Part shown: positions 23,784 to 29,747 of the stretch, piece after piece | Numbering within the stretch: position 1 is the stretch's first letter | Layout: every line of letters starts with the position of its first letter | Origin: Promethearchaeota archaeon | GTDB taxonomy: Archaea; Asgardarchaeota; Lokiarchaeia; Sigyniarchaeales; SOKP01 | Direction: 5' to 3' | DNA: 41,117 nucleotides | NCBI GenBank assembly: GCA_048939445.1 | Contig: JBHLPN010000004.1 | Span: 1 to 41,117, forward strand | Made by a program: the position numbers and the translations under genes | The notes under the pieces: generated by a model | Told to the model about the DNA's origin: nothing | Databases searched by the model: none | The model's input: the letters and a program-made list of their open reading frames with translations, nothing else

Positions 23784-24344
23784 CTATTCATCTCCCCACC
23801 GTTTAATTTCACTTTCTATACCAATTTGATCAAGAATCCTTCCTATAGTATGATCAATAAGTTCCTCAACGGATTCTGGCATAATATAATAAGAAGGAAC
23901 CGGTGGAGCAATTACAACACCTAACCTTGCTAATTTAAGCATATTCTCTAAATGAATCGGACTTAATGGGCTTTCTCTTACAACAAGAATAAGTCCACGT
24001 TTTTCCTTTATTGTAATATCAGCTGCTCTTGTAATCAAATTATTAGAATAACCATTAGCAATTGCAGCTAAAGTTTTCATAGTACAAGGAACAATTATCA
24101 TGCTTTCAACTTTAAATGAACCACTAGCAGGTGGAGCAGTTAAATCATTAACATCATAATAAATTGTAGCTAATTCTTGAAGATCACTGATTCTTATGTT
24201 AGATTCACTTAGAAGTACTTGTTCAGCTGCTTTGGATATGATTAATCCGGTTTTGATATTTTTTTCCTTTAAAACCTTTAGTAGCTTAATAGCAATTAAT
24301 ATACCTGAGGCACCAGTTATCGCAACAAGAATCATATTTCTCAC
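23784..24344 (-). CDS. ubiX: UbiX-family flavin prenyltransferase (prenyl-FMN synthase)
   Basis: 186-aa ORF. It has VAITGASGILIAIKLLKVL, IVPCTMKTLAAIANGYSNNLITRAAD and a typical UbiX/Pad1 length. Confidence 0.9.
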   Translation of the reverse strand: MRNMILVAITGASGILIAIKLLKVLKEKNIKTGLIISKAAEQVLLSESNIRISDLQELATIYYDVNDLTAPPASGSFKVESMIIVPCTMKTLAAIANGYSNNLITRAADITIKEKRGLILVVRESPLSPIHLENMLKLARLGVVIAPPVPSYYIMPESVEELIDHTIGRILDQIGIESEIKRWGDE

Positions 24345-24430
24345 AGGTACTTGATTGTAAATTTAAATTTCTTCTATGTATTAATTAATTAGGAATAATA
24401 ATTATTTTTTGTATTAATTGTAAATATGTA

Positions 24431-24438
24431 TTATATAA
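24431..24438 (+). promoter_or_regulatory. TATA-box-like element for the HMG-CoA reductase gene (near-leaderless transcript)
   Basis: TTATATAA is centred about 30 nt upstream of ATG 24464. No SD-like motif lies between them. The background is AT-rich, so the call is weak. Confidence 0.3.
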
Positions 24439-24463
24439 TAATTCTTTTCTAAGAAAAAATTGG

Positions 24464-27137: not shown

Positions 27138-28331
27138 ATGAAATTAACATCAGAAGAACAGGATATGCTGGATGGAAAGTATGGAAAAGCTGCTCAGAAA
27201 TCTATGGAGATTTTGACGACATTGGGTGAAATATTTGATGCCGAATGCATGGTTGATGTTTATGGTGTTCAAATAGCCGGAGTTTCATATGCTAATCTTG
27301 GTGAAGCAGGTCTGGAATTCTTAAACGAAATGGCAGAGGATGGTAAAGTAAGAGTCTTAACAACTTTAAATCCAGCTGGAATGGATCGAGAAAATTGGCA
27401 AGCTCTAGGAATAGATGAAGAATTTGCAAAAAATCAGAATCGAGCAATTGAAGCTTTTGCTAAAATGGGCATAATTACTACTTGTTCTTGTACACCATAT
27501 TTAATTGGGAATTCCCCTCATTTTGGTCAACACCTTGCTTGGGCAGAGAGTAGTGCTGTCTGTTATTCTAATTCTGTTATTGGTGCACGAACCAATCGTG
27601 AGGGGGGCCCAAGTGCATTGGCGTCAGCTATTACAGGAAAAACACCTAAATATGGGTATCATTTGGACAAAAATCGGCATGGAGACATTTTAATTAAAGT
27701 TAATGTTCCTGTCAAAGGTACAGACGAATTTGGTGTATTAGGAAAAATAATTGGAGATAAACTTGTTAATTTAGGGAAGAAAATACCTTATATCACAGGG
27801 GTACCAACCGCATCTGTTGAGGAACTCAAATCATTTTGTGCCTCTATCGCTACATATGGTGGTACTGCGTTATTCCATATGGAAAGAATTACTCCAGAAT
27901 ATAATCAATATCCTCAACCTAATAATATCACTTTTGAAATAAATCAAGAAGATTTGGATAAAGCACGAAAGGAACTCATTGACGATGATCTTGAAATAGA
28001 TTTTGTTAGTATAGGTTGCCCTCATGCTTCAATTCATGAAATTGAAAAAATTGCCAATCTAATAAAAGGAGAGAAAGTAAATAAAGAATTTTGGATAACA
28101 ACTGCTCGACCTACAAAACGAATGGCTGATGAAGCTGGTTATACTAAAATAATTGAAGATGCGGGTGCAAAATTTGCAGCAGATACTTGCTGTGTTGTTG
28201 CTCCAATTAAGGGACGCTTCAAAGCAATGATGGTTGATTCAGCAAAAGCATGTTATTATGGTCGAGCTAAAAACAAATTTAAAGTTAAAATCGGTCCAAT
28301 TGAGGAATGTGTGAGGGAGGCAATTAAATGA
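27138..28331 (+). CDS. Aconitase X (AcnX, DUF521) catalytic/large subunit, probably phosphomevalonate dehydratase large subunit
   Basis: 397-aa ORF. The N-terminus is MKLTSEEQDMLDGKYGKAAQKSMEIL. Three Cys motifs are present (TTCSCTPYL, GCPHAS, ADTCCVV). GAGGA lies 7 nt upstream of the ATG. Confidence 0.8.
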   Translation: MKLTSEEQDMLDGKYGKAAQKSMEILTTLGEIFDAECMVDVYGVQIAGVSYANLGEAGLEFLNEMAEDGKVRVLTTLNPAGMDRENWQALGIDEEFAKNQNRAIEAFAKMGIITTCSCTPYLIGNSPHFGQHLAWAESSAVCYSNSVIGARTNREGGPSALASAITGKTPKYGYHLDKNRHGDILIKVNVPVKGTDEFGVLGKIIGDKLVNLGKKIPYITGVPTASVEELKSFCASIATYGGTALFHMERITPEYNQYPQPNNITFEINQEDLDKARKELIDDDLEIDFVSIGCPHASIHEIEKIANLIKGEKVNKEFWITTARPTKRMADEAGYTKIIEDAGAKFAADTCCVVAPIKGRFKAMMVDSAKACYYGRAKNKFKVKIGPIEECVREAIK

Positions 28332-28720
28332 AATTAGATGGAAGGAGAATCTATAAGGGCACTGCTGAAGCAGAAGCAATCGTTACAAAAGATGGAATCT
28401 CTTTTTATGGTGGTGTTGACCCTGATACAGGGACAGTAGTAGAAGCTGGACATGAACTTGAAGGGCAATCCATAACAGGAAAAGTTTTAGTCTTTCCAAC
28501 TGGAAAGGGTTCTACAGTTGGATCATATACTATGTATAGAATGAAGAAAAATAACACAGCTCCAGCTGCGATTGTTAATAAACAAATTGATACTATAGTA
28601 GCAGTAGGTTGTATCATAAGTGAAATTCCTTGTGTGGATAAAATTGATATTAACAATATAAAAACTGGTCAAAAACTCAAAGTAAATGGTTCAGAAGGAA
28701 CTGTTGAAATATTAGATTAG
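28328..28720 (+). CDS. Aconitase X swivel-domain (DUF126) small subunit, probably phosphomevalonate dehydratase small subunit
   Basis: 130-aa ORF with GTAEAEAIVTKDGISFYGGVDPDTGTV...FPTGKGSTVGS. Its start overlaps the upstream stop (ATGA). GGAGG lies 7 nt upstream. Confidence 0.8.
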   Translation: MKLDGRRIYKGTAEAEAIVTKDGISFYGGVDPDTGTVVEAGHELEGQSITGKVLVFPTGKGSTVGSYTMYRMKKNNTAPAAIVNKQIDTIVAVGCIISEIPCVDKIDINNIKTGQKLKVNGSEGTVEILD

Positions 28721-28727
28721 TTACATT

Positions 28728-29747
28728 TTGATATATATGAAATCTTCTGCGATTGCTCATTCAAATATTGCATTGATAAAATATTGGGGTAATTGGAATA
28801 AGGTCTCCCCAGAATTAAATATACCTTTAAATGATAGCGTAAGCATGACGAAATACGGGCTTTCTGAAAACATTCATTTACAAACACATACAACGATAGA
28901 ATTTTCAGAAGACTTCAAGGAAAATGAAGCGATATTAAATGAACAATTCCTAAAAGGAAGAGATATGGAAAGAATTCTAAAAGTCATCAATCCATTAAAA
29001 GAATTAAAAAAGATTGACAATAAGTTCAAAATGATGAGTTTTAATGATTTTCCTACTCAAGCAGGTTTAGCATCATCTGCAGCTGGCTTCGCAGCACTTA
29101 CTATTGCTACAGCAAAAGCATTGAATTTGGATCTATCCAAAGAGGAACTGTCTACCTTTGCTAGATTAGGTTCTGGTTCCGCAGCACGCTCTATCCATGG
29201 TGGATTTGTCTATTGGCATCGGGGTACATCCCATGAAACCTCTTATGCAGAGAGAATATGCAATCCGGATGATTTTGATATAAATGCAATTATTGCTATA
29301 ATAGATGAGGAAAGAAAGGATGTCACCTCTGATTTAGGTCATGAATTGGCAGAAACAAGCATTTTTAATGCAATGAGAGTCAAAAAATCACAAGAACAAG
29401 CTGAAGAAATCAAGATGGCAATTTTAGATGATGATTTTAATAAAGTCGGAACAATTGCTGAAAAGAATTGCATGTTTATGCATTCGGTCATGATGACATC
29501 TGAACCAGCATTATTTTATTGGAGTCCACTCACTTTAAGAGTAATAAAAAAAGTGTTACACCTACGAAAATCTGAAAATTTGGATTGTTTTTTTACTATC
29601 GATGCAGGACCAAACGTACATTGCCTATGCAGACCAGAAAATACTGAATATATTAAAAAAACCTTAGAAGAAATTGAAGGTATCGAAAAAACCATTCTTG
29701 TAAAACCTGCTAGTGATTCTTATACGACAAATAAGCATTTGTTTTAA
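28728..29747 (+). CDS. GHMP-kinase-fold mevalonate (di/mono)phosphate decarboxylase family protein (MDD/PMD family)
   Basis: 339-aa ORF starting at TTG 28728 or ATG 28737. Motifs are AHSNIALIKYWGN, PTQAGLASSAAGFAAL, ARLGSGSAARSIHGG and FFTIDAGPNVHCL. It lies 7 nt after the AcnX small subunit. Confidence 0.85.
   Translation: MIYMKSSAIAHSNIALIKYWGNWNKVSPELNIPLNDSVSMTKYGLSENIHLQTHTTIEFSEDFKENEAILNEQFLKGRDMERILKVINPLKELKKIDNKFKMMSFNDFPTQAGLASSAAGFAALTIATAKALNLDLSKEELSTFARLGSGSAARSIHGGFVYWHRGTSHETSYAERICNPDDFDINAIIAIIDEERKDVTSDLGHELAETSIFNAMRVKKSQEQAEEIKMAILDDDFNKVGTIAEKNCMFMHSVMMTSEPALFYWSPLTLRVIKKVLHLRKSENLDCFFTIDAGPNVHCLCRPENTEYIKKTLEEIEGIEKTILVKPASDSYTTNKHLF

Follow-up and report, generated by a model that had tools for sequence, protein, structure and literature searches.

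Why a single operon should encode two solutions to the same step of isoprenoid synthesis is the question raised by a 41,117-nt stretch of DNA from a Promethearchaeota archaeon of the Lokiarchaeia (Sigyniarchaeales, SOKP01; contig JBHLPN010000004.1 of assembly GCA_048939445.1), which is called the window here in its full length. In its mevalonate (MVA) locus, the genes of an AcnX dehydratase and a UbiD/UbiX decarboxylase stand beside a gene for a GHMP decarboxylase of the MDD family. Isoprenoid supply underlies archaeal membranes, and Asgard archaea are central to debates on the origin of the eukaryotic mevalonate pathway and membrane. The reading favoured here, and held to be probable, is that of a complete operon from mevalonate to isopentenyl and dimethylallyl diphosphate (IPP and DMAPP), with a core of the archaeal route and an inserted GHMP decarboxylase acting as a parallel PMD bypass. 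The co-occurrence of the two sets repeats a published comparative result and adds little alone. What is new is a presence/absence polymorphism of the decarboxylase gene, a second recruitment of an MDD-family gene, and sister genomes that define the gene-less state, which together make of the static label 'chimeric pathway' a testable account of how routes are added and replaced. This insertion polymorphism and an element interrupting the neighbouring mevalonate kinase gene are the most worthwhile parts of the analysis, the latter being of more interest than the pairing.

Two predicted routes from mevalonate-5-phosphate

As delineated from a listing of open reading frames (ORFs) and from Pfam and NCBIfam profile scans of the window proteins, the mevalonate cluster is full and comprises HMG-CoA synthase (HMGS), UbiX, HMG-CoA reductase (HMGR), UbiD, the large and small subunits of AcnX, the MDD-family gene, mevalonate kinase (MVK), a fusion of IPK with type 2 IPP isomerase (IDI2), and a GGPP-type synthase (GGPPS) (Table 1). 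It is bigger than an earlier note on this DNA had described, extending to HMGS, HMGR, MVK, the IPK-IDI2 fusion, GGPPS, a GGR-like reductase and a cis-prenyltransferase. The genes that the note did name (UbiX, UbiD, both AcnX subunits and the MDD ORF) are all present where it had placed them, the DNA confirms the GAGGA ahead of the large AcnX gene and the ATGA by which the two AcnX genes overlap, and the gene content supports its proposal that two routes from mevalonate-5-phosphate to isopentenyl phosphate are encoded side by side. Both gene sets look functional. In the proposed scheme, MVK would make mevalonate-5-phosphate, the AcnX heterodimer (a [4Fe-4S] dehydratase) would convert it to trans-anhydromevalonate-5-phosphate, and the UbiD enzyme, loaded with prFMN via UbiX, would yield isopentenyl phosphate at no ATP cost and in dependence on Fe-S and prFMN. 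In the parallel branch, the GHMP decarboxylase would take mevalonate-5-phosphate straight to isopentenyl phosphate at the cost of one ATP, bypassing two oxygen-sensitive, cofactor-dependent steps, and the IPK-IDI2 fusion would finish the pathway. Conditional use of the two branches (e.g., under oxidative or iron stress, or according to prFMN supply) is plausible.

The gene arrangement is not a matter of chance, since the order HMGS, HMGR, UbiD, AcnX large, AcnX small, MDD, MVK and IPK/IDI2 recurs, as far as contigs reach, in 13 species-level Asgard loci (from a scan of one genome per GTDB species; MDD homologs 80-88% identical to that of the window) and in further metagenome contigs. Every operon gene is full length in these 13 representatives, whose UbiD, AcnX and MDD proteins are 80-91% identical to those of the window. 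A protein 100% identical to the window's MDD homolog is on record under the Asgard label 'Promethearchaeota archaeon', and the window itself is ascribed to a Lokiarchaeon near order CR-4, family SOKP01. The nearest genome representative by MDD-homolog identity (88%) is locus L001, i.e., contig JAEOTH010000109.1 of the metagenome-assembled genome (MAG) YT1_053, with operon proteins from UbiD to MDD that are 88-91% identical to the window's. This MAG is classed in Lokiarchaeia, order CR-4, family SOKP01 by Zhu et al. (2024, Microorganisms 12:707, PMC11052028), whose supplementary contig table for the gene-cluster figure names the same contig. Their supplementary MVA gene-count table gives, for five Lokiarchaeia CR-4 MAGs including YT1_053, no phosphomevalonate kinase (PMK) and one each of DMD, acnX1, acnX2 and AMPD, the trans-anhydromevalonate-5-phosphate decarboxylase. 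'Chimeric' Asgard MVA pathways and PMD-like motifs in 'DMD' homologs are described in the text of that study, as are the missing DMD Lys and the retained PMD His of the CR-4 proteins. The pairing of both routes is lineage-typical and already published. The earlier note had called it unexpected, allowing that the point would lapse were co-occurrence already documented as the norm for the lineage; the order shared by 13 species-level relatives and the table for the five CR-4 MAGs document just that. The same table lists PMD with acnX and AMPD in several Bathyarchaeia and Thermoplasmata; three Micrarchaeia have DMD, acnX and AMPD and lack PMK (PMC11052028).

To judge by its sequence, the AcnX protein is a two-subunit phosphomevalonate dehydratase of type IIb, nearest to the T. 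kodakarensis enzyme. The large subunit has T. kodakarensis AcnX (7CNR) as its best PDB match (E = 3.8e-100, compared with 5e-59 for a type I proline dehydratase), the small subunit matches chain B of 7CNR (E = 2.8e-43), and the two are encoded in tandem as separate subunits with a 4-nt overlap. All three UbiD domains are found in the UbiD protein, and the gene for a UbiX partner lies nearby. The best PDB match of this UbiD is 6H6V, the furandicarboxylate decarboxylase HmfF; no AMPD structure for comparison is present in the PDB. All three Fe-S cluster ligands of the T. kodakarensis dehydratase (Cys110, Cys283 and Cys342; PMC8184944) are kept in the window AcnX as Cys118, Cys294 and Cys353, and the same ligands correspond to the essential cysteines Cys122, Cys297 and Cys356 of A. 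pernix PMDh (PMC10040528). Because the UbiD gene lies directly upstream of the AcnX pair in every MVA operon compared, and because Zhu et al. count one AMPD in YT1_053, the MAG that holds L001 (PMC11052028), the window UbiD, 90% identical to its L001 ortholog, is putatively the AMPD.

The orthologs of the MDD homolog are all 336 aa long with the N-terminus MKSSAIA, so its gene most likely starts at ATG 28737, leaving 16 nt after the small AcnX gene rather than the 7 nt of the earlier note. The protein is recognized by Pfam (PF22700, 3e-54; PF18376, 6.7e-16; PF00288), and its translation contains the four motifs quoted earlier (NIALIKYWG, GLASSAAGFAAL, RLGSGSAARS and TIDAGPN). Among 16 aligned homologs, the most distant of them 62% identical, there is no variation at the P-loop, Arg143, Arg151, the loop Lys194 or the catalytic Asp289, and the GHMP P-loop segment PTQAGLASSAAGFAAL is nearly invariant across the same set. 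The claim that ATP and catalytic motifs are retained is borne out by these invariant residues; given them, the protein should be active in ATP-dependent decarboxylation, and is neither a kinase like M3K nor an MBD of the ATP-independent kind. Its best PDB match, ahead of all true DMDs, is Anaerolinea thermophila 6N0X (E = 5.7e-67, 42% identity). The Anaerolinea enzyme is a mevalonate-5-phosphate decarboxylase (reference 39 in Zhu et al.). Two changes set the 6N0Z variant apart from 6N0X (YWGN N to K and GH H to M), and at both positions the window protein has the 6N0X residues, Asn19 and His202. The counterpart of Asp289, which lies within TIDAGPN, is the DAGPN Asp in both 6N0X and 2HK2; this residue is needed for decarboxylation and absent from M3K, and its loss turns decarboxylases into kinases (PMC9254496).

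The substrate pocket was compared with the signature of true DMDs (PMC3857490, Table 4), in which Lys21 (S. epidermidis numbering, YWGK) contacts the diphosphate. This position is Asn19 (YWGN) in the window; members of the Asgard clade have N, K or H there, and those of the Bathyarchaeia clade R. The Ser192-Arg193-x-Gly-Met segment of DMDs reads S-D-L-G-H in the window compared with S-R-Y-G-M in S. aureus 2HK2, Arg193 being replaced by Asp199; among the 16 homologs that Ser and His are invariant, and the residue after the Ser is Asp or Glu. The Lys and Arg that bind the second phosphate in true DMDs are not present in the window protein, which appears PMD-like or intermediate in type. The classification by pocket residues proposed in the earlier note points in the PMD direction at Asn19 and His202, and falls short of it in that the Arg typical of PMDs is absent. 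A search of the 41-kb window detected no PMK; the sole GHMP kinase is MVK (49-50 bits on PMK models with cut-offs of 166 and 500), and the remaining ORFs are unrelated. Since the only nearby GHMP kinase is MVK, PMK is lacking from the window and from the five related CR-4 MAGs (88-94% complete; PMC11052028), and IPK is in the operon, the MDD homolog most likely converts mevalonate-5-phosphate to isopentenyl phosphate. An assignment to the Thermoplasma-type MBD or M3K was considered and rejected, as the protein scores 49.5 bits on NF040847 (MBD; cut-off 560), its ATP-site residues are retained, and MVK is present. M3K and M3P5K were likewise not found in the window, and the MBD structure 7T71 is not among the PDB matches of the protein at E <= 1e-5. 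The eukaryotic and Thermoplasma-type routes that the earlier note had entertained are both unlikely, given that the window holds no PMK, M3K or M3P5K, the DMD Lys is absent, and the MBD score is low.

Compared with known systems, the window resembles the 'chimeric' CR-4 sets of Zhu et al. in having HMGS, HMGR2, MVK, IPK, IDI2, one DMD-like gene, acnX1, acnX2 and AMPD without PMK, and their main text treats the DMD-like gene as a step in PMD-to-DMD evolution (PMC11052028). With the archaeal mevalonate pathway (Aeropyrum pernix and Methanosarcina type) it shares a two-subunit AcnX with three Cys ligands, UbiD and UbiX, IPK and MVK, but the canonical form of that pathway has no GHMP decarboxylase, whereas the window operon embeds one. 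The PMD/IPK route of Chloroflexi and haloarchaea (6N0X) has in common with it the Asn in YWGN, the His in G-H-x-L-A, the presence of IPK and the lack of PMK; differences are Asn28 in place of Arg, a score under the cut-off of the haloarchaeal PMD model, and coexistence with AcnX/UbiD. The Hodarchaeales clusters, as described by Zhu et al., also unite a GHMP decarboxylase with the archaeal route in one Asgard genome, but hold PMK and hence a full eukaryote-type branch, of which the window locus has none (PMC11052028).

Presence and absence of the decarboxylase gene

The MDD gene is an accessory insertion between the small AcnX gene and MVK, which is new relative to the published account. In the 2.27-Mb Lokiarchaeial chromosome L114 the same operon lacks the gene, and the stop codon of the small AcnX gene abuts the ATG of MVK. 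The gene is present in about 20 loci and absent from about 40 metagenome loci, and is missing from the close relatives L087, L107 and L114. A neighbour-joining tree of UbiD, both AcnX subunits and MVK (29 loci, 1269 columns, bootstrap) interleaves loci with and without the gene at bootstrap values of 75-93%. L084, which has the gene, groups with L087, which lacks it (80%); L107, without the gene, groups with the window and L001, both of which carry it (75%); and L004 and L089 (with) group with L113 and L051 (without; 93%). Because the gene-less junction looks alike wherever it was inspected, recombinational exchange of alleles would be a more likely cause of this patchiness than repeated exact deletion.

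At the same junction, loci L075, L078 and L066 hold an unrelated, cysteine-rich ORF of about 430 aa with repeated CxxC and CSNCH motifs and an HNH-like look, which is in two pieces in L066. Since this ORF is unrelated to the decarboxylase, the junction behaves as an insertion hot spot.

A different MDD-family gene was found in two further Lokiarchaeial operons (L115, 2514-3722; L116, 2487-3692). It encodes a protein of about 400 aa with KYHG and SIDTGPS motifs, which is only 29% identical to the window protein and reaches its highest scores on the MBD and PMD models. The gene lies between HMGS and HMGR in operons that also hold UbiD and AcnX and have an uninterrupted MVK. As these operons carry an unrelated MDD-family gene at another position, a GHMP decarboxylase has been paired with the archaeal route at least twice in this operon family. 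Three states occur within this one order of Lokiarchaeia: the archaeal route only (L114), chimeric (the window, L115 and L116), and PMD-only, as given for Prometheoarchaeum MK-D1 by Zhu et al. (PMC11052028). Neither the insertion between the small AcnX gene and MVK with its absence from close relatives, nor the second MDD-family type, nor the interrupted MVK is reported in the main text of that study (PMC11052028). The comparison lends some support to the idea of a transitional or redundant pathway raised by the earlier note. A bolder reading, put forward tentatively and judged possible but rather doubtful, is that the GHMP decarboxylase is a mobile accessory bypass that would free the archaeal pathway from its fragile Fe-S and prFMN steps, with all stages of route replacement alive in one Lokiarchaeia order. 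Synthesis of prFMN by UbiX needs a prenyl phosphate that is made by the mevalonate pathway, so that the pathway depends on its own product. If the mobile bypass is real, the lineage would be a natural experiment in the swapping of core pathways.

Several points weigh against the favoured reading of a parallel PMD bypass. The specificity residues of the MDD homolog appear mixed, in that the six signature positions in Table 4 of Dellas et al. (PMC3857490) are occupied by Tyr, Asn, Asn, Ser, Ser and Ser, a pattern that is DMD-like except for the missing Lys and without the Arg typical of PMDs, and the equivalent of Ile27 is Asn28 (L-N-I-P) in place of the Arg of 6N0X (L-R-I-P). The protein scores 242.9 bits on the DMD model TIGR01240, above the cut-off of 171, and 193 bits on the PMD model NF040704 (MvaD), under the cut-off of 475. 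The search for PMK covered the 41-kb window, co-transcription across the operon is suggested by spacing, and the patchy presence of the gene could mean that it is nearly neutral. Gene content, synteny, the residue pattern, the polymorphism of the gene and the published counts are shown directly; the substrate of the MDD homolog, the identity of UbiD as AMPD, co-transcription and any conditional use of the two branches are inferred. Some of these points would fit a classical DMD working with an unrecognised or distant PMK, a eukaryote-type branch beside the archaeal one, as would the DMD-like state of five of the six Dellas positions, the 'DMD' label given to the CR-4 proteins by Zhu et al., and the Hodarchaeales in which, according to the same study, PMK, DMD, AcnX and AMPD lie on one contig (PMC11052028). 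This is nevertheless improbable. The residues binding the second phosphate, Lys21 and Arg193, are replaced by Asn and Asp, and the Met by His; PMK is found neither in the window nor among the five CR-4 MAGs. The NCBIfam models do not discriminate here, because the Anaerolinea enzyme gives the identical scoring pattern (282.7 bits on TIGR01240, and 196.6 on NF040704, where it fails too).

If the MDD homolog had instead taken on a new function (another substrate, or a kinase-only or regulatory role), the AcnX/UbiD route would carry all isoprenoid flux. Close relatives do manage without the gene, the family has changed function repeatedly (M3K and MBD; PMC9254496), and the residue pattern is intermediate. 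Such a change is still unlikely, as the protein has the catalytic Asp and an intact set of ATP-site residues, and its gene lies within the MVA operon next to MVK and IPK; the second, independent MDD-family gene recruited to the operon in other Lokiarchaeia also points to a pathway-related role. Quite unlikely as well is that the pairing is a neutral transient state in which a horizontally acquired gene drifts in and out with no physiological role. The interleaving of presence and absence among close relatives and the behaviour of the junction as a hot spot, with its 430-aa ORF in three loci, would agree with drift, but species whose IDI2 proteins share only 37-66% identity have MDD proteins that share 80-90%, the gene is always full length, and its active-site residues are invariant, which argues for purifying selection wherever it is present. 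That AcnX and UbiD/UbiX might act on unrelated substrates, leaving the MDD homolog as the only route, is hardly credible: type I AcnX proteins are proline dehydratases and UbiD enzymes have many substrates, but this AcnX appears to be the two-subunit type IIb nearest to the T. kodakarensis enzyme, and in relatives without the MDD gene AcnX and UbiD are the sole operon candidates for the step.

An interruption in the mevalonate kinase gene

The annotated MVK ORF of the window (from TTG 29928) has a nonsense N-terminus. The expected GKTILFGE motif lies further upstream in a different frame, within the stretch from TTG 29891 or GTG 29882 to 29935, and the MVK sequence resumes as HFVVYGLPAIA at 29967; the 31 nt between (29936-29966) break the frame. 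The split falls inside a conserved motif (GKxILFGE^HxVVYG, where the caret marks the junction), and uninterrupted MVK homologs read GKTILFGEHFVVYGLPAIASAL, exactly the predicted join, so that removal of the insert restores the reading frame. All 12 orthologous genome loci (L001-L010, L025 and L031) are interrupted in the same way, and with about 60 metagenome loci (L040-L113) the number of such loci comes to 75; about 12 metagenome pattern matches (e.g., L042, L049, L053, L080, L091, L100, L101 and L103) were dropped as unrelated sequence. The insert is 31 nt long in most loci, 30 nt in four and 28 nt in five. Reading through it leads to a stop codon in all 65 unique sequences, one 30-nt variant beginning ATT TAA. 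Exon 1 varies mainly at codon position 3, and the insert has no codon periodicity.

The element is probably an mRNA intron spliced by EndA, a candidate for a relaxed bulge-helix-bulge (BHB) structure. Cuts are predicted after A29935 and U29966, and the spliced mRNA would join ...GGCGAA directly to CATTTTGT.... In the modelled fold, exon residues G-6 to G-3 would pair with intron nucleotides 26-29, followed by a 3-nt bulge A-A^A, with a 9-bp intron hairpin stacked directly on the central helix and the 3' junction 2 nt past the helix. The central helix GGCG:CG(C/U)(A/U) has 3 bp plus G-A or G-U, the 5' bulge A-A^A is present, and the 3' site A-U^C has canonical spacing and no outer helix, because of which the form is a relaxed one and not canonical. 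The spacing is that of a BHB motif, with predicted cuts between the second and third bulge nucleotides, as in the cbf5 introns (PMC2738675). Covariation was evaluated with 51 unique 31-nt sequences, in which 86% of cells pair in the proposed fold; sliding the partners by one to three columns lowers this to 40-49%. At the central pair, 45 of the 51 sequences have C-G, 4 have U-A and 2 have U-G, with none unpaired; the hairpin pairs alternate among U-A, C-G, A-U and U-G, and folding of individual sequences yields the same shape. Asgard archaea, Loki CR_4 among them, are reported to possess an (alpha-beta)2 EndA whose broad-specificity L1 loop allows relaxed motifs (PMC5829648).

Other explanations of the interruption fare less well. 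Frameshifting or read-through was rejected, given the stop codons in all 65 unique sequences, and translational bypass is unlikely, as there is no matching pair of take-off and landing codons. A sequencing error or pseudogene was rejected on the grounds of 75 independent loci with both exons under coding constraint. An alternative fold from RNAalifold, pairing exon 1 with exon 2, was ranked lower, since it is all coding, shows no double-sided changes, and places the junctions outside bulges. A covariance model detected no second copy of the element in the window (88.8 bits at the MVK site, 12.8 for the next best), and no cDNA-like, spliced version of any allele that bears the intron turned up when the spliced MVK protein was used as query.

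The nearest known likeness is with the cbf5 pre-mRNA introns of Crenarchaeota, which are also short inserts in a protein-coding gene at a highly conserved motif, in a host with a broad-specificity (alpha-beta)2 EndA, and which have the unconventional BHB fold, with cuts between the second and third bulge nucleotides, that is proposed for the MVK element (PMC2738675). The differences are that the gene here is mevalonate kinase and the phylum Asgard, and that splicing is predicted from sequence, making the element a candidate. A literature search found no BHB intron described for any protein-coding gene other than cbf5, nor for one of an Asgard archaeon. If it is spliced, the MVK element would be the first protein-coding BHB-type intron in an Asgard archaeon according to the literature searched, and would lie in an essential lipid-pathway gene. 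Public annotations of this kinase carry wrong or truncated N-termini (e.g., P0122 and P0231).

Layout of the locus and neighbouring genes

The features of the isoprenoid cluster are collected in Table 1.

Table 1. Isoprenoid genes and associated features of the window, with the profile matches behind each assignment.
Feature	Positions	Strand	Evidence or remark
cis-Prenyltransferase (UPPS family)	19920-20669	-	PF01255 E = 2.2e-60; upstream edge of isoprenoid cluster
HMG-CoA synthase, 558 aa	21061-22737	+	HMG_CoA_synt_N and HMG_CoA_synt_C; TIGR01835 227 bits (under cut-off)
Alpha/beta hydrolase	22764-23741	+	PF00561
UbiX flavin prenyltransferase (makes prFMN for UbiD)	23784-24344	-	TIGR00421 245 bits (cut-off 108.9)
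Class II HMG-CoA reductase	24464-25753	+	PF00368 E = 2.4e-104; TIGR00532 470 bits
UbiD-family decarboxylase, putative AMPD	25821-27122	+	UbiD_N, UbiD and UbiD_C domains; TIGR00148 370 bits
AcnX large subunit, 397 aa (predicted phosphomevalonate dehydratase, type IIb)	27138-28331	+	PF04412 E = 1.7e-150
AcnX small (swivel) subunit, 130 aa	28328-28720	+	PF01989; NF003046 184 bits
MDD-family GHMP decarboxylase, 336 aa	28737-29747 (ORF 28728-29747)	+	MVD-like_N and MDD_C; TIGR01240
Mevalonate kinase exon 1 (MGTGKGFGKTILFGE)	29891-29935	+	start probably TTG 29891; GTG 29882 also in frame
31-nt intervening sequence in MVK	29936-29966	+	candidate relaxed bulge-helix-bulge mRNA intron
Mevalonate kinase exon 2 (HFVVYGLPAIA... 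to stop)	29967-30857	+	TIGR00549 213 bits (cut-off 163)
IPK fused to type 2 IPP isomerase	30814-32772 (ORF limits)	+	NF040647 (IPK) 210 bits, residues 27-283; TIGR02151 (IDI2) 350 bits, residues 298-633
trans-Polyprenyl (GGPP-type) synthase	32965-34032	-	PF00348 E = 1.1e-52
FAD oxidoreductase, weakly geranylgeranyl-reductase-like	34053-35219	-	weak matches to FAD_binding_3, Lycopene_cycl and GGR_cat

The window has a GC content of ~30%, and tRNA and Rfam scans of it gave no match. Spacing is 67 nt between HMGR and UbiD and 143 nt between the MDD gene and the likely start of MVK. The position of HMGS is kept in relatives, the cis-prenyltransferase gene also borders the operon in L114 and L116, and the alpha/beta hydrolase occurs among relatives in L009, L010 and L084 only. 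The true start of the IPK-IDI2 fusion is probably a few codons downstream of the ORF limit. IPK and IDI2 share one reading frame in the window, L114 and L115, and are separate genes in L116. The HMGS protein has a long C-terminal extension of roughly 150 aa with a CDEGC...CPKGH cysteine motif and no Pfam match; by analogy with the DUF35 partner of archaeal HMGS/thiolase complexes, it may be a fused zinc-ribbon scaffold.

Relatives of the MDD homolog were also observed beyond the Asgard loci. On two contigs labelled Undinarchaeota (L026, 10001-18274, and L033), a homolog 60-62% identical to the window protein lies beside an AcnX-large-like gene, in the order MDD homolog, HAD phosphatase, AcnX-large-like gene, two MVK-like genes, IPK, IDI2, GGGP-type prenyltransferase and G1P dehydrogenase. 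Seven contigs with archaeal genes bear bacterial titles such as Nanopelagicaceae, KSB1, Cytophagia or 'bacterium' (L004, L017, L020, L021, L023, L024 and L027) and are likely mis-binned. L004 holds a complete Lokiarchaeial operon, and the other six have MDD homologs that are 55-62% identical to that of the window, like those on Bathyarchaeia-labelled contigs.

Elsewhere in the window, four consecutive large ORFs of 348-625 aa on the minus strand (13434-19820) and one ORF of 1250 aa (3877-7629) have no significant Pfam family, with a single weak sub-threshold match across the five. A Roadblock/LC7 gene, typical of Asgard genomes, is located at 8917-9378.

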